64,000 bases of DNA, from IMG/VR virus record IMGVR_UViG_3300045988_092126; one strand, given 5' to 3'. The notes under the pieces were generated by a model. That model was not told the origin of the DNA. It ran no database searches and saw only the letters and a program-made list of their open reading frames with translations. Position numbers and translations under genes: made by a program. Below, one piece after another: positions 6,206-32,684 of the stretch (position 1 is the first letter of the stretch; the number at the start of each line of letters is the position of its first letter). Origin of the DNA: a virus.

Positions 6206-6952
6206 ATGAAGACGAAAAGAGGTTGGGATTTTGGAAATTTTGAGGTTACTAAGAGAGAAATTATTGCTAGCATTTCAATCATTGCAGTAATGCTTCTTAT
6301 AGGAACATTGATTTCTTCCAAAATATCTGACTGGCAGATAAATCAAAATGATAAATACAATAAAGCTGTAAAAATTCAATCCACAGATTTGTTTCAGTAT
6401 GGAATGGAGACTAACGTCGGTAATGCTTTTGTGTATGGCAAATTAAAGGCTGTAGATACAGTTACTTACCCAGAAATTAATGGCAAATACATGTATGTTA
6501 AGAAGGTTAAAGAAAAATATACCATGCACACCAGAAGAGTAGCACATAAATCTGGAAAAAGTACTTATTACACCACTGAAACTTATTGGACTTGGGATTA
6601 TGCAGGAAAAGAAAGCAAGACAGCTAAGAAAATAAATTTCTGCGGAATTGATTTTAAAAGCAATAAAATCGTTCTTCCAGATGACGAGTACATTGATACA
6701 GTAAAAGAGTCCAGTTATATCAGATACAAGTACTACGGAGTTGGAACGAAGTACAAAGGAACAATTTTTACGTCACTAAAAGACAAAACAATCAGTGATA
6801 AGACTAAATTTTACAACAACCAAAATATCGAAGAAACAGTAAAACTCTTAGAAACCGGAGTATGGTTAATTTTATTTCGTGTTTTATGGGCTATCTTGAC
6901 AGGAACGGTTGTTTTTGGATTTTATTACTTAGATAATGATTGGTTAGAATAA
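6206..6952 (+). CDS. Membrane protein, putative LemA partner
   Basis: Internal ATG (MKTKRGW...) of ORF 6128..6952. It has an N-terminal TM and a C-terminal double TM. No family recognised. Confidence 0.6.
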   Translation: MKTKRGWDFGNFEVTKREIIASISIIAVMLLIGTLISSKISDWQINQNDKYNKAVKIQSTDLFQYGMETNVGNAFVYGKLKAVDTVTYPEINGKYMYVKKVKEKYTMHTRRVAHKSGKSTYYTTETYWTWDYAGKESKTAKKINFCGIDFKSNKIVLPDDEYIDTVKESSYIRYKYYGVGTKYKGTIFTSLKDKTISDKTKFYNNQNIEETVKLLETGVWLILFRVLWAILTGTVVFGFYYLDNDWLE

Positions 6953-6971
6953 GCAGTCAAAGAGCCACATG

Positions 6972-7018
6972 AGAGCCAGACTAAATCCTAAAAAGAAAGG
7001 AGATCTGGCTCTATTTTT
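6972..7018 (+). promoter_or_regulatory. 9 bp hairpin with a T-run abutting the terL start; the only SD-like sequence lies in the loop
   Basis: AGAGCCAGA(6972-80)...aaaggag...TCTGGCTCT(7004-12) ATTTTT ATG(7019). Confidence 0.45.
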
Positions 7019-8755
7019 ATGCAAAAATTCACAGAAGGTTCGCTTGAATGGTATCGGGCAATTTTAAATCAAATCATTAATGGTGATATGACGGTCTATC
7101 AAAACCAGAAAGATTGCCTTGATCTGCTGTTAAATATGAATATTGATCTTCCTTTCAAGGATAATCCAGATGCGCAACAGATGGGAATAAAGGTAAGCCA
7201 GTATGCACACAATATCGCAGAAAGGCAAGCTGCTATTACTGGAAGTGGAGATTTTGACGATATTTACTGGAAATATTTACTGTTGGAAGCACAGAACTAT
7301 CAAGTTGACAGTGGATTGCTTTACCTTGAAAAGAACCGAATTCCAAAAGAACGATTTTATGAACCACGAAGAAATGTGTTTTTGCAGCATAATATTATAA
7401 GTTCGTTGCAAGACCTGATGGACGATAAGCTTGATATATTTGCATTGAGCGTACCTCCTGGCTGTGGCAAATCGACTCTTGAAGATTTCTTTCTTTCGCT
7501 TGTTGGCGGATGGTTCCCCAATGATTTTAATTTATCATCTGCACATAGTAGTATTCTTACCCGTTCCCTATATGACGGAGTTTTGGAAATAATCAATGAT
7601 CCAGTTGAGTATACATGGCATGAAATATTTCCGAATGCGGAAATACAAGGAACGAATGCAAAAGAAACAACTGTTAACCTTGAAAGAAACGGACGTTTTA
7701 AAACATGGACGTTCCGATCAATTGACGGCTCTCTGACTGGTGCTACTCGTTGTAATAGATTTCTTACCGCCGATGACCTTGTATCTGGTATTGAGGAAGC
7801 GTTGAACAAAAACCGATTAGATACCCTGTGGACAAAAGTAGTAAATGACTTGCGTTCTCGTAGGCTAGAGGGTTGCAAAGAGTTTTATATAGCTACAAGA
7901 TGGTCAGTACATGATCCTATTGGAAAGCTACAGCAGTTATACGCTGGGAACCCTAGAGCAAGGTTTATAGCAGTACCGGCACTTGACGAGAATGGCAAAA
8001 GCAATTTTTTATTCACAGTAAATGGGTTCTCTGAGAAGTATTTCAACGATGCTAAAGAGTCCATGGACGAAATCTCTTATAACTGTCTTTACCAGCAACA
8101 ACCGGTAGAACGTGAAGGATTGCTACTTCCACCAGATAAGCTAAAAAGATTTTTCTTCGACAGAGAAGACGTGCCCGATGGATGCACGGACGAATACACA
8201 ATTATACCAGACAGAGAAGCAGATGCGATATGGGCAGTATGCGATACAAAAGACAAAGGAACCGACTTTGAATCATTACCGATTGCATATCAATATGGCG
8301 ATAAATTCTTTATTGTAGACGCCGTATTCGATGATACCACAGATTACGATATTTTGGACAGAAAGACCGCAGACATACTGACTAAACACAACCCACATAT
8401 GATTCGCTTTGAATCAAATAACGTCGGAAATCGTGTCGCTCATGACGTCCAAAAACTCATTGATGGGAAATGCCGAGCAGAAATAGAAACCAGACCTACT
8501 CAGGCAAACAAAGAGACGAAAATCCTTGTCAATTCAAATTATATTGTGAATCATTTTTATTTTTTACATCCAAGCCAGTATAAACCGAAGTCTGATTATG
8601 GGCTATTTATGGGGAATGTAACCACATATACCACAAGGGCAAAAGTAGCACATGATGATGGTCCTGACAGCTTGGCTATGATGTCGGAATACGTTCAAAA
8701 TCCGTTGGGCGGTAAAGCTAAAGCGATGCACAATCCATTTTGGGGAAGGAGATAA
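7019..8755 (+). CDS. terL: Terminase large subunit
   Basis: 578 aa. Walker A motif PPGCGKST and a C-terminal nuclease-type region. It sits just upstream of the portal gene. Confidence 0.85.
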   Translation: MQKFTEGSLEWYRAILNQIINGDMTVYQNQKDCLDLLLNMNIDLPFKDNPDAQQMGIKVSQYAHNIAERQAAITGSGDFDDIYWKYLLLEAQNYQVDSGLLYLEKNRIPKERFYEPRRNVFLQHNIISSLQDLMDDKLDIFALSVPPGCGKSTLEDFFLSLVGGWFPNDFNLSSAHSSILTRSLYDGVLEIINDPVEYTWHEIFPNAEIQGTNAKETTVNLERNGRFKTWTFRSIDGSLTGATRCNRFLTADDLVSGIEEALNKNRLDTLWTKVVNDLRSRRLEGCKEFYIATRWSVHDPIGKLQQLYAGNPRARFIAVPALDENGKSNFLFTVNGFSEKYFNDAKESMDEISYNCLYQQQPVEREGLLLPPDKLKRFFFDREDVPDGCTDEYTIIPDREADAIWAVCDTKDKGTDFESLPIAYQYGDKFFIVDAVFDDTTDYDILDRKTADILTKHNPHMIRFESNNVGNRVAHDVQKLIDGKCRAEIETRPTQANKETKILVNSNYIVNHFYFLHPSQYKPKSDYGLFMGNVTTYTTRAKVAHDDGPDSLAMMSEYVQNPLGGKAKAMHNPFWGRR

Positions 8756-8756
8756 T

Positions 8757-9179
8757 ATGGACACAAGAGAATATTTGAATCAAATCCAAAGATATGATAA
8801 AATCAGAAGAAACAAGCTCGAAGAGCTTGAATATCTTGAGTCTCTTGCACAAGGGATAAAATCTTTTTCATATGATTCTGAAAGAGTCCAGACATCCGGA
8901 CCATGCGACAAAATTGGAGAAACAGTAGCTAAAATCGTAGATTTAAAAAATGATATTATCGAAACTACAAATAAGTGTCTGGAAGTTCGCATTGAAGTTA
9001 CTAAAACAATTGATTCCGTGACTAACTCTGTTTTTTATGATATTCTTTTTAAAAGATATGCAGAAGGAAAGTCACTTGATGTAATCGCCGATGAAGTAGG
9101 TTATTCATATCAGAGGACTAAAGAACTTCATTTGTCCGCAATAGCAGCGGTGAAAAAAATAAAAGGGTTCGAATCTTAA
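8757..9179 (+). CDS. ArpU/RinA/DUF1492-like late transcriptional regulator (sigma-70 region 4-like HTH)
   Basis: 140 aa. The C-terminus reads FYDILFKRYAEGKSLDVIADEVGYSYQRTKELHLSAIAAVKKI. Confidence 0.6.
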   Translation: MDTREYLNQIQRYDKIRRNKLEELEYLESLAQGIKSFSYDSERVQTSGPCDKIGETVAKIVDLKNDIIETTNKCLEVRIEVTKTIDSVTNSVFYDILFKRYAEGKSLDVIADEVGYSYQRTKELHLSAIAAVKKIKGFES

Positions 9180-9182
9180 CTC

Positions 9183-9259
9183 CATACTGAAACATACTTA
9201 AAAACGTTGTATAATATAAAATGTAATAATGTAGCACTGGGGAAACTCAGTGCTTTTTT
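9183..9259 (+). promoter_or_regulatory. Repeated late element, copy 1: CATACT-N4-CATACT box, extended -10, hairpin + T-run
   Basis: CATACTGAAACATACT (9183-98), 11 nt gap, TG-n-TATAAT (9208-15), AGCACTG/CAGTGCT hairpin (9233-54), TTTTTT, CATGCA. A near-identical arrangement occurs at 24727-24800. Confidence 0.6.
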
Positions 9260-9285
9260 CATGCAGAAAAATAGGAGGATAGGCA

Positions 9286-10755
9286 GTGGGGAGAAACAAA
9301 ATAAACTTTGTTGACCTATGCCAAGGAGAGTTTGGCAGAAAGATTGCCTATACTGGCGTAGACCAGATTACTCCCCAGAATGTGGCACAGGTTCTTTCTG
9401 ATACAATTGGAATCCACAACAGGAACAGAACCTTGATAGATTATCTATACAGATATTACAAAGGCGACCAGCCGATTCTATATCGTGAGAAACTTGTTCG
9501 GCCTGAGGTTAATAACAAAGTTGTCGAAAATCATGCTCTTGAAACAGTAAAATTCAAGGCCGGACAGATATATGGAGAACCTATTCAGTATGTCTGCAAA
9601 AAGAAAAAAGCGAGTGAAAAAATAAATGAACAAGTTGACCGGCTCAATGATTATCTGGATGAAGCCAACGCAGATGCCAGAAACATTCAGCTGGGGATAT
9701 ACCAGAGTGCAGTAGGAACTGCATATAAAGCAATCCTGAGAGAGGATGAATGGACAAAGGATGGAGACTTACCGCCTTTTAGAATATTTATCCCATCACC
9801 GCAGGATGTATATATTGTTTATTCAAGCGTTACTGGCAAACCAGTGCTTTCCGTCCAGATTTTAAAAGACGAGAACAATCAGCAGTATTACCAGTGTTAT
9901 TCTTCCAGACAGTATTTCAAAATTCAAAATGGAGCGGTAACAGAATCTGGAATCAATGGTTTTGGTGGTATTCCTATCATTGAATATCCGAATAATCACG
10001 ACAGACTTTCCGACATTGAAATTGCGATTACAATGTACGACGCAATCAACAAATATCAATCTGACAGACTGAATGGGGTTGAACAGTTCGTGCAAGCCCT
10101 GATGAAATTTAAAAACTGTGAGATTGATGAAGCAGAGTTCGTAAAGATGGTTAAACTAGGTGCGGTATCGGTAAAAGATGTTGGAAACGGAACACAATCA
10201 GACGTTGATTTAATGACCGCCGAACTAAACCAGTCAGAGAGCCAGGTTGCAAAAGACGACATTTACAATAATATGCTGATTGTCGAAGCAATGCCAAACC
10301 GACAAAGCAATACCGGTGGAGATACAGGCAATGCAGTATATCTAAGGAATGGTTGGGATTTCGCTGAACGCGATGCAAAGCTAGTAGAAGCATTCACAAA
10401 AGAATCCGAAAAGGCATCTGCCAGAATCATTTTGAATATCATTCGAAAAACATCAATGGATGTAAATATTTCAACCAGAGATTTCGATGTAAAAATCACC
10501 AGAAACCCGACTGATAATATGCTTGTTAAAGCGCAAGCACTTGATTATCTGTTTAAAAATAAAATTCATCCGCTTATTGCGTTGATTACTTGCGGATTAT
10601 TTAGTGATCCGCAAAAAGTATACGAAATGAGTTTGCCATATCTTGGGACCATTTATCCTGAATTAGCAGACCCAAACTCAGAGCTTCAAAAAGCACAAGA
10701 ACTGTTAGGGAATTTTAATCCAATTTCTCTGAATAAGGATGTGGTCAAAGAATGA
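9286..10755 (+). CDS. Portal protein (SPP1 gp6-like), GTG start
   Basis: 489 aa, positioned after terL. Contains ...YLYRYYKGDQPILYR...VVENHALETVKFKAGQIYGEPIQY. Confidence 0.8.
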   Translation: MGRNKINFVDLCQGEFGRKIAYTGVDQITPQNVAQVLSDTIGIHNRNRTLIDYLYRYYKGDQPILYREKLVRPEVNNKVVENHALETVKFKAGQIYGEPIQYVCKKKKASEKINEQVDRLNDYLDEANADARNIQLGIYQSAVGTAYKAILREDEWTKDGDLPPFRIFIPSPQDVYIVYSSVTGKPVLSVQILKDENNQQYYQCYSSRQYFKIQNGAVTESGINGFGGIPIIEYPNNHDRLSDIEIAITMYDAINKYQSDRLNGVEQFVQALMKFKNCEIDEAEFVKMVKLGAVSVKDVGNGTQSDVDLMTAELNQSESQVAKDDIYNNMLIVEAMPNRQSNTGGDTGNAVYLRNGWDFAERDAKLVEAFTKESEKASARIILNIIRKTSMDVNISTRDFDVKITRNPTDNMLVKAQALDYLFKNKIHPLIALITCGLFSDPQKVYEMSLPYLGTIYPELADPNSELQKAQELLGNFNPISLNKDVVKE

Positions 10756-11414: not shown

Positions 11415-11441
11415 AGAGACGAGTAAAATCGTCTCTTTTTT
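11415..11441 (+). terminator. Intrinsic terminator
   Basis: AGAGACGA-gtaaaa-TCGTCTCT followed by TTTTT. Confidence 0.7.
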
Positions 11442-14213: not shown

Positions 14214-14525
14214 ATGGGATGTGAACATGAATGTTTTAATGAACACCGCATAGAAGAATTAGAGAATAGTCTTCGACAGATGCAAGAGAGACAATCCGAC
14301 CGCCATAAAGAGTTTTATGAGCGTATCGGGGAACTGGAAAGAAAGACAGCATTAAGTGAGAATGACTTGAACCATATCAAGTCAACTGTGGATGAGATGA
14401 ATAACAATATAAAGACTCTCATGGCAGTTCCAGGAAAGCGCTATGATACAATTATTGTATGTGTTATTACGGCAATTGTCGGCGCGGTTATCGGATTTAT
14501 GTTAAACGGCATTCTTCCAGTTTGA
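14214..14525 (+). CDS. XhlA-like protein (coiled coil + C-terminal TM)
   Basis: 103 aa. N-terminal coiled coil and C-terminal IIVCVITAIVGAVIGFMLNGIL. The call rests on architecture only. Confidence 0.45.
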   Translation: MGCEHECFNEHRIEELENSLRQMQERQSDRHKEFYERIGELERKTALSENDLNHIKSTVDEMNNNIKTLMAVPGKRYDTIIVCVITAIVGAVIGFMLNGILPV

Positions 14526-14554
14526 TTCCACTTGTAAGGGAGGACGGTGGAAAT

Positions 14555-14809
14555 ATGAATTATACAGACTTTTCAGAAGATGAAAGAAAATTTTACTTAA
14601 AAGAAGCAGGATTCGATTCCAGAGAAGAAAAACTGTTTCGTTTACGGGTTTATGGCGAGAAAACACTATGGGAAGCAGCTGAACTTATGGGGTATAGTCC
14701 AAGAACCATAGACCGAATTAATAAAAGAATAAAGAAGAAAATTTCTAAAGTTGCCCCGATGTACTGTCGGGGCTTTTCTTTGTATTGTGGCGAAAACGTG
14801 GCGAAATAG
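14555..14809 (+). CDS. Small sigma-70 region 4-like HTH protein
   Basis: Internal ATG with a GGAGG RBS. ...EKTLWEAAELMGYSPRTIDRINKRIKKKI. Confidence 0.55.
   Translation: MNYTDFSEDERKFYLKEAGFDSREEKLFRLRVYGEKTLWEAAELMGYSPRTIDRINKRIKKKISKVAPMYCRGFSLYCGENVAK
14753..14781 (+). terminator. Intrinsic terminator lying inside the last 19 codons of the preceding ORF
   Basis: GCCCCGA-tgtactg-TCGGGGC followed by TTTTCTTT. Confidence 0.65.
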
Positions 14810-14964
14810 TGACGTTCAAAAACAGAGTTCCTTCCTATATAATATAATCATAGGAGAAAACACAATGATTATGTTAAGAAACCCTTACGAGGGTATATGG
14901 GAAAAGCATCGTTCTATAGATGATATGGATATGATTCTTGAATCCCGGACAGGAGGAACAGATT

Positions 14965-22681: not shown

Positions 22682-22773
22682 GGAGTTAGGTTCCCGACTA
22701 CCAATCAAAAAAAACCTAACTCCAACACCACAAAGGGTACAGTATTATTATAACATGGTACTCTCCCTTTGTG
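22682..22773. repeat. Two inverted repeats upstream of the recombinase gene (attP or operator candidates)
   Basis: GGAGTTAGGTT(22682-92)/AACCTAACTCC(22713-23) and CACAAAGGG(22729-37)/CCCTTTGTG(22765-73). Confidence 0.5.
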
Positions 22774-22796
22774 AACCCAAAAGGAGGGTATTTTTT

Positions 22797-23792
22797 ATGA
22801 GAGATAAATTCGTGAATGGGTTCATGACAAAACTGTATGGAGAAATTCCGGAAGAGTATCTGGAAACGATCAGAAACAAACTGGCGTTGTATGTAAATGA
22901 TTTTGATATCAGTCAAAGAGAAACAGCAGTTGTAAAGTATACTGGATATTTGCCGGATTTTTACAAAACTTACATTGTAAGTAGAAAAATCGAGGGTTTG
23001 AGTAAAAAGACGCTCGAACTCTACAATCTTTATCTGAATGATTTCTTTTTCACATTCAATAAAAAAGCTGAAGATATTACCTCAAATGACATTCGTGTAT
23101 ATCTGTATAATGCTCAGGAAAGCAGAAGTCTAAGTAATCGAACACTTGATAGCCGCAGAACTGCCATTCATGCATTTTTCGAATGGGCTGCAAACGAGGG
23201 ATATGTGGGCAAAAACCCATGCAGATCAATCAAAAATATCAAATATGAGCGTATAGAAAAACAACCTCTGACAGATATGGAACTGGAAAGAATCAGGCAA
23301 GCTTGCGAAACCGTACGTGAAAAAGCACTGGTTGAATTTCTGTATAGTACCGGAGCCAGGGTTACAGAAGTGTGTGGTGTAAAGAAAACAGATATAGACA
23401 TTTACAAAGGTGAAGTAGTTGTTTTGGGGAAAGGCAACAAGCATAGAACAACATACCTAAACGCTCGTTGTAAATTACTTTTAAAACAATACTTTGCAAT
23501 TAGAGATGATGAATCGGAATATCTTTTTGTAAGTGAAAGGAAACCACATAAGGTACTCAAAAAAGAAGCAATTGAAAGAATTGTACGAATAATCGGTGAA
23601 CGGGCAGAACTGGACAGACCTCTAACACCGCATCTATTTAGGCATACTCTTGCGACTCTTATGCTTCAAAGAGGTACGCCGATTACTGAGGTGCAGAAGA
23701 TTCTTGGACATGTCAACATTAACACGACAATGATCTATGCAAAGGTATCTGATGAAGATGTAAAAGTGTCTCATATGAAATATGCAATATAA
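22797..23792 (+). CDS. int: Tyrosine recombinase / integrase (XerC/D-like)
   Basis: Contains TGARVTEV, GKGNKHR, HLFRHTLAT and GHVNINTTMIYAKV, which supply the R..K..HxxR..H..Y catalytic set. Confidence 0.85.
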   Translation: MRDKFVNGFMTKLYGEIPEEYLETIRNKLALYVNDFDISQRETAVVKYTGYLPDFYKTYIVSRKIEGLSKKTLELYNLYLNDFFFTFNKKAEDITSNDIRVYLYNAQESRSLSNRTLDSRRTAIHAFFEWAANEGYVGKNPCRSIKNIKYERIEKQPLTDMELERIRQACETVREKALVEFLYSTGARVTEVCGVKKTDIDIYKGEVVVLGKGNKHRTTYLNARCKLLLKQYFAIRDDESEYLFVSERKPHKVLKKEAIERIVRIIGERAELDRPLTPHLFRHTLATLMLQRGTPITEVQKILGHVNINTTMIYAKVSDEDVKVSHMKYAI

Positions 23793-23815: not shown

Positions 23816-24214
23816 ATGAGAGGATTGAAACGCCAAAAACAGGCAGTGTATTGGTCAAGGGTAACTGAAGACCTTGACGGGATAGACACAATCAAAACGT
23901 ACCAAAAGCCAGAATTACATCACCTCTCCGTATCTGCGACTGCCGGAACGCCAGAGGAATTATCCGCCGGGTACGTCCCTGATTACGATAGGTACATCAC
24001 GAATTTTGACCGTAGCTTCAAACCGCAAATTGCAGATGTGTTCTGGATAGACTGCAAACCGGAATTGAACGAATCTGGAGAACTTATCTTAGGCGAAGGC
24101 GGGGAGCCTACAGTTCCGCCAGATTACCGTCTGAAAAAGATTCTCGATACCCAGAAAGGCAATGTGGCACGATACGGTATTAAGTACACAGGAGATGGCT
24201 CAGATGGCGAATAA
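23816..24214 (+). CDS. Neck / head-tail joining candidate
   Basis: 132 aa with an AAGGGAG RBS. The call rests on position only. Confidence 0.4.
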   Translation: MRGLKRQKQAVYWSRVTEDLDGIDTIKTYQKPELHHLSVSATAGTPEELSAGYVPDYDRYITNFDRSFKPQIADVFWIDCKPELNESGELILGEGGEPTVPPDYRLKKILDTQKGNVARYGIKYTGDGSDGE

Positions 24215-24722
24215 GACTATCAAAATGGAACTGTCGCATAAATCTATACAGGACACAATAAAACAGCTCAGGCAGTACCAAAACAGCCTTAAAAGTAAGA
24301 ATGAATTATTTGTTCGTCGACTGTCTGAACTTGGAATCCCTGTCATTGATCAGAATATTTCACTGTCGCAGGGCGATTCCGATAAAAATCACAGCACCTA
24401 CATCAAAATCAATTCGTTCGGCGATTACTCACAAGCAACTTTAGTATGTGAGGGCGCAGGTCTGTTGTTCATAGAGTTTGGTGCCGGAATCCATTACAAT
24501 ACCCCGGCAGGCTCAAGCCCGCACCCGAAAGGGCAGGAACTTGGATATACAATCGGTTCTTACGGTCATGGTAAAGGAAAAAACGATTCTTGGACATACA
24601 CGTCTGAAACTGGCGAATGGGTAAGATCATATGGTACCGAAGCCACTATGCCGGTTTATAAAGCAAGCATGGAAATCATACAGAACATTCGGAAAATCGC
24701 AAAAGAGATATTTTCTACTTAA
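24204..24722 (+). CDS. Neck / tail-component candidate (start uncertain)
   Basis: About 172 aa. The call rests on position only. Confidence 0.4.
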   Translation: MANKTIKMELSHKSIQDTIKQLRQYQNSLKSKNELFVRRLSELGIPVIDQNISLSQGDSDKNHSTYIKINSFGDYSQATLVCEGAGLLFIEFGAGIHYNTPAGSSPHPKGQELGYTIGSYGHGKGKNDSWTYTSETGEWVRSYGTEATMPVYKASMEIIQNIRKIAKEIFST

Positions 24723-24726
24723 ACTT

Positions 24727-24800
24727 CATACTGAAACATACTATTCAAAATGGTATACTATAACATATAAAAGCATCTGCAAACAAGCAGGTGCTTTTTT
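24727..24800 (+). promoter_or_regulatory. Repeated late element, copy 2
   Basis: CATACTGAAACATACT (24727-42), 11 nt gap, TGGTATACT, GCATCTGC/GCAGGTGC hairpin (24773-94), TTTTTT, CATGCA. Confidence 0.6.
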
Positions 24801-24832
24801 CATGCAAAAACATAGAAAAGGAGAATGTAAGC

Positions 24833-25471
24833 ATGTTAGTAGAAACAATGATTATCAGAAAAGTAGAAACGAGCATTGTCACAAGCCTAGATGTCGCGGA
24901 GACTTTTGGAAAAGAACATAAAAGAGTATTGCAGGACATTAGAGAATTAGGATGCAGTGAAGAATTCGGACAGCACAATTTCGTGCCTTCCTCATATACA
25001 AGTATTCAGAATAAAAAGCAACCTATGTACTGTATGACAAGAGATGGGTTCACACTTCTTGTTATGGGATACACTGGCGAAAAAGCCATGAAATTCAAAG
25101 AAGGATATATCCGCCAGTTCAATGCAATGGAAAAAGTTCTTTTAGGGAAAATAAGAGAACGAGACAAAGGCATTGCAGTGAGACAGGCGTTGACCAATGC
25201 ACTTAAAGAATCTCAAGAAAATGAGAGAATACATGGTCATGCGTATTCGACATATACAGATATGGTATATCGTACATTGTTTGGCAAAACTGCAAAACAA
25301 CTTAGAGAAGAAAAGGGAATCTCTACCAAGGACAATCTGAGAGATTTCCTCACTGAAGAAGAATTAAAAGCAGTTCAATCAAAAGAAATGCTTGTTAGCG
25401 GATTGATTGACTGTGGATGGGGATATTCTCAAATAAGAGATTTCCTAAAGGACAGTCTCAAAATATGTTAG
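24833..25471 (+). CDS. Rha-family phage regulatory protein (antirepressor-like)
   Basis: ...VTSLDVAETFGKEHKRVLQDIRELGCSEEFGQHNFVPSSY...MTRDGFTLLVMGYTGEKAMKFKEGYIRQFNAME. Confidence 0.7.
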   Translation: MLVETMIIRKVETSIVTSLDVAETFGKEHKRVLQDIRELGCSEEFGQHNFVPSSYTSIQNKKQPMYCMTRDGFTLLVMGYTGEKAMKFKEGYIRQFNAMEKVLLGKIRERDKGIAVRQALTNALKESQENERIHGHAYSTYTDMVYRTLFGKTAKQLREEKGISTKDNLRDFLTEEELKAVQSKEMLVSGLIDCGWGYSQIRDFLKDSLKIC

Positions 25472-25489: not shown

Positions 25490-25897
25490 ATGCCAGACAC
25501 GATCAATAACCCAGTATCAGAAGTATTTTCTAGGTGGAGTAAAGATATTCAACCAGCAGTCGGCAAAGGCAATTTTTCCATGGAGAAAAGCCAGACAATA
25601 GCATCTGGCAAAACGAAATACGCCAGATTGTTCATGATGGGGAATCCCACGCAGTCGACAAGTCTTGAAGGTCACGAATGTGCAACAATTCTTTCGTTTC
25701 AAGTGGAAAGTTACGCATCTGGAACGAAGGCTTTATCGACTGCATATGAAATCGACAGCAAGAGCCATCAGGCTATGGTTTCAATGGGATTTCGCCGGAC
25801 ATACGGGCCAGAAGAGGTTGCAAACTCTGAAAAGAGTTTTAAACGAATCATAAGCCGGTACAGCAGAATTTACACCGGGCAATTATTGGAAGCGTAA
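25490..25897 (+). CDS. Tail completion / terminator candidate
   Basis: 135 aa, positioned upstream of the major tail gene. Confidence 0.4.
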   Translation: MPDTINNPVSEVFSRWSKDIQPAVGKGNFSMEKSQTIASGKTKYARLFMMGNPTQSTSLEGHECATILSFQVESYASGTKALSTAYEIDSKSHQAMVSMGFRRTYGPEEVANSEKSFKRIISRYSRIYTGQLLEA

Positions 25898-25912
25898 CAG
25901 CTTCTATTTTTT
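25889..25912 (+). terminator. Weak intrinsic terminator
   Basis: GAAGC-gtaaca-GCTTC followed by TATTTTTT. Confidence 0.45.
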
Positions 25913-26196: not shown

Positions 26197-26217
26197 AGAG
26201 CCACATGGCTCTTTTTT
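26197..26217 (+). terminator. Intrinsic terminator
   Basis: GAGCC-acat-GGCTC followed by TTTTTT. Confidence 0.5.
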
Positions 26218-27260: not shown

Positions 27261-27661
27261 TCTGGGATGAATTATATCCAATGGCTGTGCGCATTGGAAT
27301 GTCAAAAAAAGAATTTCTCAGGAGCACTCTTAAGGACTTGAGAATCCGTATAGAACAATACGGAATCTCAAAAAATGAAGAAATTCAGTCGCAGTTAATA
27401 AACATGGACTATCAGGCATGGCTGACCGGATTGTATGTCAAGACGAGTATTTCGTGCGCATTATTTCCGAGAAAGGTTAGTTATCCGAGCAAACCAATTA
27501 CGCAGGAAAAACAAAATAATTGGGTCAAACACAATCCAAATACGCCAAAGAAATCAGAAGCAGAACTAAGACAAGAAGAACGTTACTACGAACTTCTTAT
27601 CAGGCAGGCAAATGCAAATATATCTGAAATAGGCAATAAAGAGGGCAAGCAGGATGAATAG
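27242..27661 (+). CDS. Tail assembly chaperone -1 frameshift extension (GT-like)
   Basis: The -1 frame is open across the end of the 26775 ORF. An A6 run at 27240-45 (TTG AAA AAA GCT) is the likely slippery site. Confidence 0.6.
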   Translation, partial: KSYSEIIWDELYPMAVRIGMSKKEFLRSTLKDLRIRIEQYGISKNEEIQSQLINMDYQAWLTGLYVKTSISCALFPRKVSYPSKPITQEKQNNWVKHNPNTPKKSEAELRQEERYYELLIRQANANISEIGNKEGKQDE

Positions 27662-27688
27662 TAGTCTTGCTTGCCCTTTATTTTTTTG
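27643..27688 (+). terminator. Strong intrinsic terminator immediately upstream of the tape measure gene
   Basis: GGGCAAGCA(27643-51)/TGCTTGCCC(27668-76) followed by TTTATTTTTTT. Confidence 0.7.
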
Positions 27689-27707: not shown

Positions 27708-30700
27708 ATGCCTGACAACACAATAGATAGCCTTGCGATAGAGGTCAGCAGTAACGTATCAAATGCAAGTAAATCCATTGATGATTTATGCAATAAACTG
27801 AATCGTCTGAGTAGCCGTATGTCTGAGAGTATCAAGCATCTTAGAGACTTTTCAGCTTCCGTAGGTACGGTCAATTCTGCTGTTCAAGCACTTAAATTAG
27901 ACAGGCTTGATTTATCAACGATAAACAGTCAATTGCAACAGTTTGTTCAGTCTATGAGTGCGCTCGGTAGCCTGAACTTGAGAAACAACGGATTAAACTC
28001 ATTCGTAAATGCAATCCGCAGACTGAACGAAACATTAAACTCCACAGGTGATGTGTCTGGAAAGATTCAGAACATGATTTCCGAATTATCTGGTCTTAGC
28101 AGTATTCCAGACGTATCAAACAACGTGAACCGGTTTGTTTCTTCATTGGCAAGATTGGCGAATGCAGGTGGCTCTATTGATGCAGTTACATCAAAACTTC
28201 CAAATCTTGGTGAAGAACTCAGAAAAATCATAGTTTCGTTCTCTGGAATAGGTAATATCTCTCAACCAATTAATACATTTGTTCAGTCAATTTCACAGTT
28301 GGCAAATGCAGGAGATAAAACTGGAAAGACTGCAACTCAGCTTAATGATTTGGCTAATAGCTTAAAATTATTCTTTCAGACAATGAGTACTGCTCCAAGA
28401 ATTAGTAACAGCACAATTCAAATGACACAGGCTATTGCTCAATTGGCAAACTCTGGGGCAAATGCTGGTAGGGCGGCAAGGTTTACTGCGAGTGCTTTTT
28501 CCAGACTGGGACAGGGTGCGGCTGCTTCGACGGGAAAAGTTAGAAGACTCGGTAATGCCGTTGGAAATGTAGGAAGTAAAGCTAAAAAAAGCTTACCTAG
28601 CATTATGTCCTTGGTTGCGAAGTTCTGGACGTTGAAATTTGTTGTTGGAAAATTCGGTAGCGCAATTGAAAGTTCCATGAACTTCCTCGAAGATTATAAC
28701 TACTTTCAAGCGGCGTTCCGTCAGGTAGCAGATAAAGCAGGAAAAACTTGGTCGGAAGCAGGGTATGACTCCGCAGAAGCATACGCAGATTCATTCAGCC
28801 AGAGAGCCAGAGAACTTACATCTAAAATGTCTGGATTTGATGTTTCTGACAATGCGATTCTGACCTCAAATAAAACCGGTAAGTCACTTGGTATGGACCC
28901 GTCCATGCTTTTAAATTATCAAGGCCAGTTTGCACAGTTATCATCATCTATGGGAACGACTTCTGAACAGGCTTTAAAGCTGTCGAATGCGTTAACTATG
29001 ATCGGCGCAGACCTTGCATCTGTTAAAAATCTTGATTTTAAAACAGTTTACGAAAACTTATCCTCTGGATTAGTAGGAATGAGCCGTGCTGTAGATAAAT
29101 ATGGCGCGAATATTCGTGTGGCAAACTTACAGCAATACGCTTCGAATCTCGGACTGCAAACAGCTGTATCAAAGATGGACCAGGCAAGCAAAGCAATGCT
29201 GAGGACAATAGTGATACTGGATTCTACACGGTACGCATGGGCGGATATGGCAAATACGATAAATATGCCAGCCAACCAGTTACGTATACTTCGTGCAAAT
29301 TTAGTATCCTGCGCCAGAGCATTAGGGAACATCTTTATGCCTGTAGTTGCGGCAGTGCTTCCATACATCAATGGTCTCGTAATCGCATTTCAAAGACTTT
29401 TGACATACATTGGTTCACTTCTTGGAGTTGATACCAAAATTGGAAATATGTTCGGTTCTATCGGTAGCGGAAGTGAAAATCTCTCAAACGCACTTGATAC
29501 TATAGACGATTCTAGTCTTTCAGATGTTGATGATACTACAAAAGATACCAGTGACAATCTGAAAAATGCGACTAAAAACGCAAAGAAGCTCAAACAGTTC
29601 CTTGCATCCTATGATGAATTAGAGGTTATGAGCAAAGACGACAGTTCTCTGTCAAACCTTGCAAATTCTAAGATTAAAACGCCTGCTCTTGACACATCTG
29701 CCCTTGACGCAGGAATGCTCAATGATGCGTTGGATAAGCTTCTGAATGAATACCAGAAGAAATGGGATGCCGCCTACAACTCAATGGAAAATAAGGCCAT
29801 GGCGTTCGCGAATAAGGTTACAGACACATTTAAGAAACTTGCAAAAGCCGCAGAGCCTACTACAAAAGCTTTGAAAAATCTCTGGAATAACGGATTGAAA
29901 CAGCTCAGAGACTTCACATGGACAGCATTAAAAGATTTCTGGGAACATTTTCTAAAACCACTTGGGAAATGGACATTAGGAGAAAAAGGATTACCACGAT
30001 TAATCAATGCTTTTAACGATTTTCTTGTAAAAATTAACTGGGATAAAATCAATGCTTCCCTTGTGCAATTATGGGATGTATTAGAGCCATTCGCTGAGAA
30101 TGTCGGAACAGGATTGCTTGATTTCTTTGACGATTTCTTTGACAAGGCGGCAGACGGAGTGAACAAACTCCCTGATCTGATTGACAAGTTTAAAGAGTTT
30201 ATCGCGGGATTCTCACCAAAGCAAGCACAATCTATCGGTTATTTCCTCGGACAGCTTCTGACTGCATTTATGGCGTTCAAAGGACTTACATGGTTCGGGG
30301 GCATTTTCGGTAAAGATGGAGTGATAGGCAAAGGCATTACCATGTTAGCGGCACATCCATACGCTTCGATAGCGGCAGGGCTGGGACTTACCGTCGCCGC
30401 GCTTGATAAGTTTGGAGTGATTGATGTTGATTGGGACGGATTATGGACAAGAATTGGAAATCTCAAAGACGTAATTGTGAATTTCATCAAAAATATTGAT
30501 TGGGATTCATTGGTAAAAACAATCGGTGATGTATGGGATGTATTTCAGCCGTTTGCTGAGGGATTCGCAGACGCATTTATAAATTTCTTTGACATAATGC
30601 TCAATGACATTGGAGCACCACTAATTAATACATTAGTAAAAGTACTGGATGCATTTGCAAAAGTGTTAGGAAAACTTTCTCCTGAGTCAATATCTGCAAT

Positions 30701-32684
30701 AGGAAATGCGCTTGGAATTTTCTTCGCAGTAAAAGGAACTATTAAATTTTCGAAAAATATATGGAGTGTGGTTAGTTCAATTAGTGGACTACGAACGATA
30801 TTCAACGGTCTTGGCTCTGTATTATCTACAGCTAGTGGTGCGTTACAGACATTTTTTGGTTCTGGACTCGGTTCTACACTTGCGGCAGGATTCGCAGACA
30901 GTATGGTTGTCTTAGGCACTGCAATGGCGGGATTCAACCTTGGGAAATGGATAAGCGTTAATCTGTTCGGCGGCGAAGATAAAACCTTCGGGGAATTTTT
31001 GGAAGATAATGTATTCGGTTATCAAAAAGGGGATTTTACCGGAGCTATCAACGAATGGATGAAAGATATATTCGGAGTTGGAAATAAGCTTACAGAGGAC
31101 GACTTAAAAGTATTCCAGGAATATGAAGATGCCATTCTTAGTCTGGTTCACGCAAGCCAGATTTCGGGTGAACAAGCATATCCTTTATTAACATTCCTTT
31201 CTGAATTAAAAGACAATGGATATAGCACAGAACAGGCATTGCATGAACTTGAACTTAAACTCAATAATCTAGGGGTTTCATCAGAAGATTTTGAGAATGC
31301 GATAGCAGGAGTAAATAAACCGGTCAAAGACCTTGGAGACACAGCGGAAGCATCCTCTAATCAGTTTTCAAATATGGCTGACCGGATTAACAATGTTTCA
31401 TTTGAGGATATCTCAGAACAGCTTACGGGATTCCAGACACTTATCCAGACCGTTGACTTTGCGACTCTGGTAACAGATACAGCAAATGCAATTGATGAAA
31501 TGGGCGGCATCTGGGAAAACGGAAAACAGATTCTCGGCGAAAAAGCATTGCAGATTTATCAAGAAATCGCAAAGGGATTAGAGCCAGACGACAACGGTTA
31601 CTATACTTTAGCAAACGGTCAGATGGTGCAGTTCGGGAAAGGTATTTCTGACTATGAAAGCACTCTACAAAGTACAATGGATTCAACTCTGCAAGGAGCA
31701 ATCAACGGTGTTCTGGACAACAACTCCGGGTTTGAATTACTTGCAGAACTTGGAAAAAATCAAATTGTGGCATGTGGTGATGGAATTACTCAGAATGGTG
31801 GTCAGCTTACCAGCAAGCTAAACGAAACCATTACAACCGCAAGTTTAGAAGCAGGAAGTACAGCAAAAACCAGTGGAAAAGAAATAGGTGAAAATTCTGT
31901 AAAGGGAGTTATGCTGGGATACGAAAGTCAAAAAGATGCACTTGGTGTTGCAACTCAAAGCTTGTTTGATGATTATGTCAAGAAGAAAGCGCAAGAGTCT
32001 CTTGAATCTCATTCTCCGTCCAGATGGTTCAAGCAGCTTGCAGAATATTGCGGTCAAGGATTCCAAAACGGATTAGAGCCGGGCTTTTCCTCGTCATTTA
32101 CATGGTTTGGAAGAATCCGAACCAGAATCAGCAGTTCTATTGGAAACTTATATAATATCGGCTGGAACTCTATTATCGGTTTGAATAACGGAATCGTAGG
32201 CGCGGCACAACAGCTTTATGCGAATGTGCAAAAAATCGCTCAAAACATATCAAATACGTTCCGCAGAGTCCTTAAGATTCACAGTCCATCACAGGTAATG
32301 ATGGAACTCGGTGGATTCACCGTTGAGGGATTCCAGCTCGGTATGCAAAATATGCTTCCAAAAGTCGAATCAACCATCAATGACATAAGCGCAGAAGTGC
32401 AAAAGATTAACACGCCATCCGCAGACATTATTACAAAGAGTACATCCTATCAGGAAGTAAAAAGCAGAATGTCTGTTGATACAGATGATTTTGTGGACGA
32501 CATTCGGAAAGAAGTCATGGCAATCAGCAGTAACACGTTTGACAATAACCAGATGATCGGGCAGGCGGTCAAAAACGCTCTGAACGGCATGGCAATCTAT
32601 GCAGACGGACATCTGATTGGATATCTGAAAGAAGAAAATCAGCAGTTCAGAAATCGTAATGGATACGGAATATTTGAAGGGTAG
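27708..32684 (+). CDS. Tape measure protein
   Basis: 1658 aa with helical repeats and hydrophobic central segments, positioned after the chaperones. Confidence 0.85.
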   Translation: MPDNTIDSLAIEVSSNVSNASKSIDDLCNKLNRLSSRMSESIKHLRDFSASVGTVNSAVQALKLDRLDLSTINSQLQQFVQSMSALGSLNLRNNGLNSFVNAIRRLNETLNSTGDVSGKIQNMISELSGLSSIPDVSNNVNRFVSSLARLANAGGSIDAVTSKLPNLGEELRKIIVSFSGIGNISQPINTFVQSISQLANAGDKTGKTATQLNDLANSLKLFFQTMSTAPRISNSTIQMTQAIAQLANSGANAGRAARFTASAFSRLGQGAAASTGKVRRLGNAVGNVGSKAKKSLPSIMSLVAKFWTLKFVVGKFGSAIESSMNFLEDYNYFQAAFRQVADKAGKTWSEAGYDSAEAYADSFSQRARELTSKMSGFDVSDNAILTSNKTGKSLGMDPSMLLNYQGQFAQLSSSMGTTSEQALKLSNALTMIGADLASVKNLDFKTVYENLSSGLVGMSRAVDKYGANIRVANLQQYASNLGLQTAVSKMDQASKAMLRTIVILDSTRYAWADMANTINMPANQLRILRANLVSCARALGNIFMPVVAAVLPYINGLVIAFQRLLTYIGSLLGVDTKIGNMFGSIGSGSENLSNALDTIDDSSLSDVDDTTKDTSDNLKNATKNAKKLKQFLASYDELEVMSKDDSSLSNLANSKIKTPALDTSALDAGMLNDALDKLLNEYQKKWDAAYNSMENKAMAFANKVTDTFKKLAKAAEPTTKALKNLWNNGLKQLRDFTWTALKDFWEHFLKPLGKWTLGEKGLPRLINAFNDFLVKINWDKINASLVQLWDVLEPFAENVGTGLLDFFDDFFDKAADGVNKLPDLIDKFKEFIAGFSPKQAQSIGYFLGQLLTAFMAFKGLTWFGGIFGKDGVIGKGITMLAAHPYASIAAGLGLTVAALDKFGVIDVDWDGLWTRIGNLKDVIVNFIKNIDWDSLVKTIGDVWDVFQPFAEGFADAFINFFDIMLNDIGAPLINTLVKVLDAFAKVLGKLSPESISAIGNALGIFFAVKGTIKFSKNIWSVVSSISGLRTIFNGLGSVLSTASGALQTFFGSGLGSTLAAGFADSMVVLGTAMAGFNLGKWISVNLFGGEDKTFGEFLEDNVFGYQKGDFTGAINEWMKDIFGVGNKLTEDDLKVFQEYEDAILSLVHASQISGEQAYPLLTFLSELKDNGYSTEQALHELELKLNNLGVSSEDFENAIAGVNKPVKDLGDTAEASSNQFSNMADRINNVSFEDISEQLTGFQTLIQTVDFATLVTDTANAIDEMGGIWENGKQILGEKALQIYQEIAKGLEPDDNGYYTLANGQMVQFGKGISDYESTLQSTMDSTLQGAINGVLDNNSGFELLAELGKNQIVACGDGITQNGGQLTSKLNETITTASLEAGSTAKTSGKEIGENSVKGVMLGYESQKDALGVATQSLFDDYVKKKAQESLESHSPSRWFKQLAEYCGQGFQNGLEPGFSSSFTWFGRIRTRISSSIGNLYNIGWNSIIGLNNGIVGAAQQLYANVQKIAQNISNTFRRVLKIHSPSQVMMELGGFTVEGFQLGMQNMLPKVESTINDISAEVQKINTPSADIITKSTSYQEVKSRMSVDTDDFVDDIRKEVMAISSNTFDNNQMIGQAVKNALNGMAIYADGHLIGYLKEENQQFRNRNGYGIFEG

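Follow-up and report, generated by a model that had tools for sequence, protein, structure and literature searches.

In a very large proportion of the temperate phages of Gram-positive bacteria, packaging and lysis are turned on by late regulators of the Ltr type, which also govern transduction and satellite mobilization. Four families of late transcriptional regulators have been described, proteins with a DUF1492 domain constituting family III, LtrB (Quiles-Puchalt, 2013; PMC3753634). In the same work, direct repeats immediately past the regulator gene were required for activation by RinA, LtrC and ArpU, gel shifts on the repeat-containing region were reported for ArpU and LtrC, and a terminator was located between ltr and terS; Pcad read-through was fully blocked, yet Ltr gave strong expression (PMC3753634). 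In phi11 and 80alpha a RinA-dependent triphosphate 5' end was found downstream of the terminator, 23 nt before terS, and the 155-bp distance between the RinA site and this mapped 5' end was called a puzzle by the authors (Ferrer et al., 2011; PMC3152322). Outside this group, AlpA was initially regarded as an activator but turned out to act in antitermination; it depends on a site within the promoter, on a pause element resembling a -10 and on a terminator further downstream (PMC7969949, PMC9371919).

Here we analyze a gut phage in which the head genes and the tail genes each start at one copy of the same small switch. The DNA studied, a stretch of 64,000 nt (IMG/VR record IMGVR_UViG_3300045988_092126) that we refer to as the window, had previously been read from its letters and open reading frames, and this first-pass annotation had proposed a duplicated late control element. 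The layout of the switch is kept across the regulator family, which suggests that the regulator may help RNA polymerase to read through a stop signal.

Two copies of a compact cassette

The coordinates of both copies and of the surrounding features are collected in Table 1.

Table 1. Features of the two cassettes and their surroundings in the window.
Feature	Position	Strand	Details
terL	7019-8755		Just 5' of the regulator gene
Late regulator gene	8757-9179	+	140 aa; LtrB/DUF1492 family by sequence
Cassette copy 1	9183-9265	+	Box, 11 nt, -10, hairpin with T6, CATGCA, then RBS
Box, copy 1	9183-9198	+	16-mer CATACTGAAACATACT, CATACT-GAAA-CATACT; two direct half-sites, 10-bp period
-10 hexamer TATAAT, copy 1	9210-9215	+	11 nt 3' of the box
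Further -10-like hexamers, copy 1	9217-9222 (TAAAAT), 9224-9229 (TAATAA)	+	7-nt register
Putative leader terminator, copy 1	Stem 9233-9241/9246-9254, T6 9254-9259	+	9 bp, GAAA loop; hairpin 9233-9254, -14.5 kcal/mol, z -4.6
Tail, copy 1	9260-9288	+	CATGCA 9260-9265, A-rich stretch, RBS AGGAGG 9273-9278, portal start GTG 9286
Portal gene, SPP1-type	9286-10755		PF05133, 4.6e-77
Further terminator-like hairpins	11415-11441, 25887-25912, 26197-26217		
Cassette copy 2	24727-24806	+	Same order of parts as copy 1
Box, copy 2	24727-24742	+	Exact CATACTGAAACATACT again; 5 nt past the TAA of ORF 24162-24722
Extended -10 TGgTATACT, copy 2	24751-24759, hexamer TATACT 24754-24759	+	11 nt 3' of the box
Further -10-like hexamers, copy 2	24761-24766 (TAACAT), 24768-24773 (TAAAAG)	+	
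Putative leader terminator, copy 2	24769-24800; stem 24772-24780/24787-24795, T6 24795-24800	+	A-tract, loop AAACAA; hairpin 24772-24795, 9 bp plus A:U extension, -16.9 kcal/mol, z -7.2
Tail, copy 2	24801-24835	+	CATGCA 24801-24806, RBS AAGGAG 24818-24823, Rha start ATG 24833
Rha-family gene	24833-25471	+	PF09669, 1e-32
Strong terminator-like hairpin, late unit 2	27640-27688	+	-27 kcal/mol, then TTTATTTTTTT; ends ~7 nt 5' of the tape-measure RBS

Much of the anatomy given in the first-pass annotation was found again. Both copies lie 4-5 nt past a stop codon (the box of copy 1 begins 4 nt past the TAA of ORF 8757-9179), the 16-mer consists of two CATACT half-sites with a 10-bp period followed by exactly 11 nt, and T6, CATGCA and an RBS come after each hairpin. 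Other points had to be amended. The identical box spacing holds for the 11-nt gap between box and hexamer but not for the distance from box to CATGCA, which amounts to 77 nt in the first copy and 74 nt in the second. An extended -10 had been assigned to both copies, but the canonical form (TGn) is present only in copy 2, since the TG of copy 1 abuts the hexamer. The hairpins, which had been called completely different in sequence with preserved pairing, do keep pairing through compensatory changes, but their base, AGCA...TGCT, is common to both copies and only the inner 5 pairs differ.

A promoter consensus scan read both copies as CTGAAA-17 nt-(-10), and the box would extend from approximately -39 to -24 if the adjacent hexamer is the -10. 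The leader is AT-rich; of its -10-like hexamers, which are candidates for a sigma-dependent pause of the Q/AlpA kind, the last doubles as the A-tract of the terminator. From the T-run to the start codon there are 26 nt in copy 1 and 32 nt in copy 2, RBS included. The control region is only about 105 nt long, so that the order repeats, -10, terminator, RBS is unambiguous. In both tails (9254-9265 and 24795-24806) and in those of relatives, GGTG is located 8 nt 5' of the ATG of CATGCA, at a Shine-Dalgarno-like spacing; variants in relatives have GTG or TTG, once ATA, in place of the ATG. Candidate roles for this GGTG...ATG arrangement are those of a short leader ORF, of a start site and of a processing site, although an ORF starting at this ATG was discarded as a candidate, given that its frame and length are not conserved and that one relative carries the ATA.

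One repeated exact 16-mer is by itself unremarkable in the window, where 7 pairs of exact repeated 16-mers were found versus approximately 1.6 repeated 16-mers in simulations. The two cassettes, however, have a pair of exact 16-mers in common, the box and GTGCTTTTTTCATGCA, arranged in one order and starting 67 or 64 nt apart, and a covariance model built from relatives gave scores of 91.9 and 81.5 bits for the two copies, the next best match in the window reaching 20.3 bits. The identical parts and order, along with these scores, bear out the duplicated late control element, which was confirmed as real. A third match to the 16-mer in the window (6386-6401, minus strand, 3 mismatches) and a repeat at 14800/21899 were attributed to chance, this repeat being inside a coding region. 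No Rfam family was detected in the whole window at gathering thresholds, nor in the element at E<=10, and BLAST searches against GenBank phages returned no match for copy 1 and matches to the flanking genes only for copy 2. In scans of genome contigs, one match in a Bacillota MAG is missing the hairpin and is probably due to chance.

Gene neighborhood

The order terL, regulator, cassette, portal is the same in three relatives. In the window, the portal gene is followed by the genes for a MuF-like head protein and the major capsid protein, and a 9.7-kb accessory block, with a recombinase gene (22755-23792) and two other genes, precedes copy 2. On the 3' side of this copy are the Rha-family gene, neck and tail genes and the tape-measure gene (27708-32684), and a holin-like gene is found 1.1 kb away. 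Copy 2 had been described as preceding the Rha gene and it does adjoin the Rha start, but it is not an element of Rha's own, as the cassette heads the tail block in relatives. In four of them the cassette lies directly 5' of the homologue of 25490-25897 and no Rha gene was found, which indicates that copy 2 heads the tail-gene unit and that Rha was inserted behind it; judging from this comparison of gene order, the Rha gene is a later, lineage-specific insertion that separates the second cassette from 25490-25897, where the conserved part of the tail block begins. Later essential genes, such as that for the tape measure, also have strong terminators on their 5' side that leave no space for a promoter.

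Two other loci in the window share some of these traits. A second small ORF (14459-14866) has a sigma-region-4-like C-terminus, with weak matches to phrog_36 and to sigma-factor families, and shows the opposite order of parts: a terminator (14753-14773), then two direct repeats GTGGCGAAA (14787-14806) spanning the stop codon, and past these TTCAAA-17-TATAAT (14815-14843) and the following gene. Upstream of terL (6953-7021) there is a hairpin in which AGAGCCAGA (6972-6980) pairs with TCTGGCTCT (7005-7013), leaving a 24-nt loop that contains the RBS; its tail, ATTTTTATGCAAAAA, resembles that of the cassettes, and the ATG of this tail is the annotated start codon of terL (7019).

The late regulator

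The 140-aa protein matches phrog_36 (1e-14) and, weakly, sigma-70 region 4. Its homologues at 63-71% identity carry PF07374 (DUF1492), and the protein itself had no Pfam match at E<=0.01. The first-pass designation as ArpU/RinA-like was right as to the superfamily but not as to the branch, given that no ArpU or RinA model of NCBIfam was matched: by its sequence relationships the regulator is a member of the LtrB/DUF1492 branch of the Ltr (RinA/ArpU) late-activator superfamily. In the AlphaFold (AF2) model (pLDDT 83.7), two long N-terminal helices form a helical hairpin; the disordered loop between them hardly varies within the family (V44, Q45, S47, D51). The C-terminal three-helix domain, of approximately 60 aa, superposes on SigD4, SigR4 and SigE4 with TM values of 0.67-0.79. 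This domain is thus predicted to fold like sigma region 4. Homology to Q or AlpA was not detected by Pfam, NCBIfam or PHROGs, and the best fold matches were to sigma region 4. The possibility that the protein is an alternative, ECF-like sigma factor was rejected, the sigma match being limited to the C-terminal ~60 aa (region 4) and the N-terminus consisting of a two-helix hairpin with no region 2; TGAAAC within the box, which could be taken for an ECF -35 element, is not conserved in relatives.

Conservation of the cassette and of the regulator-box pair

The first-pass annotation had proposed a search for the 16-mer in relatives. In an exact-match scan of IMG/VR it was present twice in seven contigs, and the boxes of relatives are either conserved or co-vary with the regulator. 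Cassettes were sorted according to their context into types A and A' (after the regulator and before the portal gene), B and B' (before the tail block) and C. In all of these the -10 is at 11-12 nt and the inner stem of the hairpin differs yet pairs, and the hairpin is kept at the sites that are not adjacent to the regulator gene (types B, B' and C). Three complete relatives of 78-80 kb have three same-strand copies each, approximately 15.7 kb and 8.7 kb apart, the regulator-proximal copy having the variant boxes CATACTGAACCATACT or CATACTGAATCGTACT. Other IMG/VR matches to the 16-mer were set aside: those of type D, in three contigs, are without the hairpin, and the sole genome checked among them, which is complete, is without the regulator, while type E and several singletons are unrelated. 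The third cassette of the complete relatives, type C (L026, 656-790, and four more contigs), is located in a non-coding stretch of ~600 nt and has two terminators in tandem; it precedes genes of 120 and 1637 aa without homologue in the window.

A survey of homologues covered 79 loci, with regulators of 36-100% identity and 45 distinct downstream sequences. A terminator-like hairpin followed by a T-run, of -11.7 kcal/mol or stronger, was found no more than 150 nt past the stop codon in every one of the 45 distinct sequences. Direct repeats phased at 10 bp are located at or just past the stop codon in the homologue loci of all subfamilies, and a TAnnnT hexamer follows 10-12 nt past the repeats in most of them, being farther off in four loci; this spacing between box and hexamer is kept in most subfamilies though the surroundings have diverged completely. 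A comparison of subfamilies indicated that the repeat varies together with the recognition helix: SYQRTKELHL goes with CATACT, AYQWVRQLHI with CATACA, SYSHVKLLHS with AATAC(T/C), SFRNTTRLHG with GTCCTA, and SWRQIIRLHG with TGTCATA. The box is very probably the target of the 8757-9179 protein, with which it co-occurs and co-varies.

Covariation was tested on 19 hairpin variants anchored at the stem base, with 500 shuffles. All 171 cells pair (171/171, 100%), compensatory changes were observed in 6 of the 9 pairs, and none of the 500 shuffles matched this result. Conservation in the 3' arm, the T-run and the following (A/G/T)TG(C)A goes beyond pairing and affects the sequence itself, down to 36% regulator identity, and the tail GGTGCT-T6-CATGCA is conserved well outside the close family, its ATG and GTG variants keeping a purine at that place. 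Distant members have leaders of 50-110 nt 5' of the hairpin. The distant TGTCATA subfamily has one cassette per genome, which makes multiple copies a trait of the lineage of the window, where the late region is split by an accessory block. At 36-40% regulator identity, in L094 (560-780) and eight other loci, a hairpin of this kind, AGCACC...GGTGCT with a T-run and TATGGC, was also seen ~1.8 kb 5' of the regulator, behind a conserved two-hairpin leader that has no CATA repeats and no Rfam match.

How late transcription may pass the hairpin

Each copy is an Ltr-type late-promoter cassette with a terminator inside its leader, and the features described above make it probable that both cassettes are regulator-dependent late promoters. 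According to the mechanism that we propose, the regulator would use its sigma-region-4-like domain to bind both CATACT half-sites in tandem, as the comparison of subfamilies suggests; the half-sites would take the place of the -35, and host sigma-A polymerase would use the TATAAT or TATACT located 11 bp downstream. The predicted transcript then meets a canonical intrinsic terminator after about 5-15 nt of leader. This run of a promoter-like -10 into a terminator-like hairpin, pointed out in the first-pass annotation, stood up to comparison, both parts being conserved and the hairpin covarying in relatives. No sigma-A promoter fits between the T-run and the start codon in either copy, and therefore the mRNA of the portal and tail units must cross the terminator. 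Polymerase that starts there in the presence of the regulator may become resistant to terminators, as happens with Q at lambda PR' or with AlpA at alpB. The hairpin would stop read-through from upstream and basal starts, while late transcripts would pass the hairpin and the later terminators of the operon; copy 1 would start the portal and head unit, and copy 2 would restart transcription for the neck and tail unit behind the accessory block.

For this entire chain, including active, regulator-dependent antitermination of the Q/AlpA kind, we would put the chances at slightly less than even, and we favor it over passive leakage through the terminator. Antitermination is favored by an order of parts that stays fixed at distal copies too, by how strong the terminators are and by the presence of further ones in the operon, as well as by the published combination of a complete block of Pcad read-through with strong expression under Ltr (PMC3753634). 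Counting against it are the lack of relationship between the regulator and Q or AlpA in sequence and fold, and the RACE result in 80alpha (PMC3152322). The papers that we searched contained nothing linking Ltr proteins to antitermination, the presence of two or three cassettes in a genome speaks against antitermination that is fully processive from the first of them, and hexamers resembling a -10 in the initial transcribed region would be fairly frequent in AT-rich DNA. The put-like RNA mechanism considered in the first-pass annotation is disfavored, and a put/EAR-type antiterminator RNA was rejected, because the leader has a single hairpin with a variable inner stem, no multi-helix RNA and no match in Rfam. 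Two other ways around the terminator were also rejected: a start within the 5' arm of the hairpin, directed by the third of the -10-like hexamers, does not work for type A' or for the distant members with long leaders, and a competing antiterminator fold does not agree with the hairpin being both the minimum-energy and the centroid structure of the short leader.

The same reasoning could be extended to the whole family, DUF1492/Ltr proteins and, by shared layout, RinA, LtrC and Alt being promoter-loaded antiterminators and not primarily activators, a generalization that we consider unlikely. The promoter would then fire constitutively at a low level and give a terminated RNA of ~37 nt, and the repeat-bound regulator would pass to the polymerase, perhaps via the invariant disordered loop (ERVQTSG..D), which would make it ignore terminators. 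If true, this would also account for the dependence of RinA on sequences located 155 bp before the 5' end mapped in 80alpha. Should antitermination be correct, these regulators would represent a new class of promoter-loaded antiterminator proteins, and their box/regulator pairs would be compact and orthogonal elements for synthetic control in Firmicutes.

Among the alternatives, the one that survives best, although we find it somewhat unlikely, is that the hairpin acts as a passive insulator or attenuator. The regulator would activate a promoter followed by an ordinary terminator, and late expression would be the fraction that leaks from many activated starts, termination being unaltered by any factor; the hairpin would block read-through from terL-ltr at copy 1 or from the accessory block at copy 2, and would trim basal starts. 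Each copy lies 4-5 nt past a co-directional gene, for which it is needed as a terminator, and insulation would be useful in the lysogen given the holin-like gene 1.1 kb past copy 2. Several cassettes per genome fit re-initiation rather than processive read-through, and internal terminators can also set the stoichiometry of late products. However, a terminator past the promoter cuts induced and uninduced levels alike, whereas before the box it would provide insulation without this cost, and all 45 variants, as well as the distal copies, preserve the order box, -10, hairpin. Moreover, the hairpins are strong, with perfect T6 tracts, and in unit 2 transcription would need to leak past four terminators on its way to the tape-measure gene.

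If late transcription began past the hairpin, at the pyrimidine-purine step conserved in (C/T)(A/G)TGCA, this would correspond to what was reported for phi11/80alpha by 5'-RACE (PMC3152322), and the conservation of the sequence GGTGCT-T6-CATGCA well beyond the close family is consistent with it. The regulator would act from ~75 bp upstream, the TATAAT adjacent to the box would be idle and the hairpin would merely terminate the upstream gene. We regard this as improbable, since nothing like a sigma-A -10 or -35 is in place (the -10 would read GGTGCT and the -35 would fall in the variable loop or arm), while a canonical -10 at 10-12 nt from the repeats is kept in most of the diverged subfamilies. 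The start reported for TP901-1, in so far as it is cited in PMC3152322, also adjoins the repeats (-76..-32).

Still less probable is a role at the RNA level, with the hairpin as a 5'-terminal stabilizer or processing signal of the late mRNA, or with the cassette making a short RNA (~37 nt) of its own. In Firmicutes, 5' stabilizers consist of a hairpin close to the 5' end of the mRNA. The hairpin of both copies would have this geometry, with about 5-12 nt between it and the predicted 5' end, and it covaries, but a stabilizer needs no T6 tract, distant members have 50-110 nt of leader before the hairpin, the lack of conservation of inner stem and loop speaks against a trans-acting RNA, and Rfam gave no match. 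Finally, a mosaic-boundary remnant or chance repeat without regulatory meaning, for which one could invoke the abundance of exact 16-mer repeats in the window and the several unrelated singletons among the IMG/VR matches, can hardly be reconciled with a composite element that recurs with the regulator in every relative examined and shows covariation, both within the hairpin and with the regulator.

Comparison with known systems

The proposed antitermination mechanism has its closest parallels in lambdoid Q (PR'-qut-tR') and Pseudomonas AlpA (PalpB-tB). In these systems, as in our reading of the window, the promoter itself harbors the DNA site of a small HTH protein 5' of its -10, the earliest transcribed positions include -10-like hexamers, and an intrinsic terminator comes shortly afterwards, followed by a long operon with more terminators. 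Unlike in Q and AlpA systems, the box overlaps the -35 position instead of being strictly between -35 and -10, and the predicted start is only about 5-15 nt away from the terminator.

The position of the box recalls a different group of promoters. At the pho boxes recognized by PhoB and at the middle promoters of T4 controlled by MotA/AsiA, the -35 is replaced by an activator site, either tandem or single, whose end is 10-12 bp from a good -10 downstream, and the half-sites are direct repeats with a 10-11-bp period. The box of the window is placed like the pho box or MotA box, where the activator replaces the -35 contact, but PhoB and MotA belong to other protein families and their promoters have no built-in terminator.

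With the control regions of the Ltr systems (RinA/ArpU, LtrA, LtrB/DUF1492 and LtrC) and of TP901-1 Alt, the window has in common a small regulator with a sigma-region-4-like or HTH C-terminus, direct repeats right past the stop codon of the regulator as the specific site, and a terminator between the regulator gene and the first late gene, and regulator and repeats travel as one module. It differs from them in that the regulator gene is between terL and portal and not directly upstream of terS, and in that its lineage has 2-3 cassette copies per genome, also away from the regulator gene. The published Ltr model also departs from our reading in placing the promoter past the terminator.

We looked at these regions in three phages. 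In 80alpha, TGGCAGT-N4-TGGCAGT is followed at 10 nt by TAAAAT and, after ~95 nt, by a hairpin with T6, beyond which is the published 5' end; in phi55, five TGAC-type repeats and TTTAAA-16-TATAAT precede a hairpin with a T-run by ~250 nt; and in TP901-1, CACGAAA repeats and TGaTATACT are followed by a leader of ~480 nt and a terminator 12 nt before the terS RBS. The TP901-1 alt-terS leader (L127, 2100-2520) also contains the tRNA-like T-arm sequences GGTTCGAATC and GGGTTCGACTCCC before the terminator. The order repeats, -10, terminator, first late gene thus seems to be general in 80alpha, phi55, TP901-1 and the window, and on this alignment of parts the window cassette is the most compact form of the general Ltr layout. 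Such compactness removes the ambiguity of the long intergenic regions of staphylococcal and lactococcal phages, as the only plausible promoter is upstream of a strong terminator, and places the choice between activator and antiterminator within reach of one in vitro transcription experiment.
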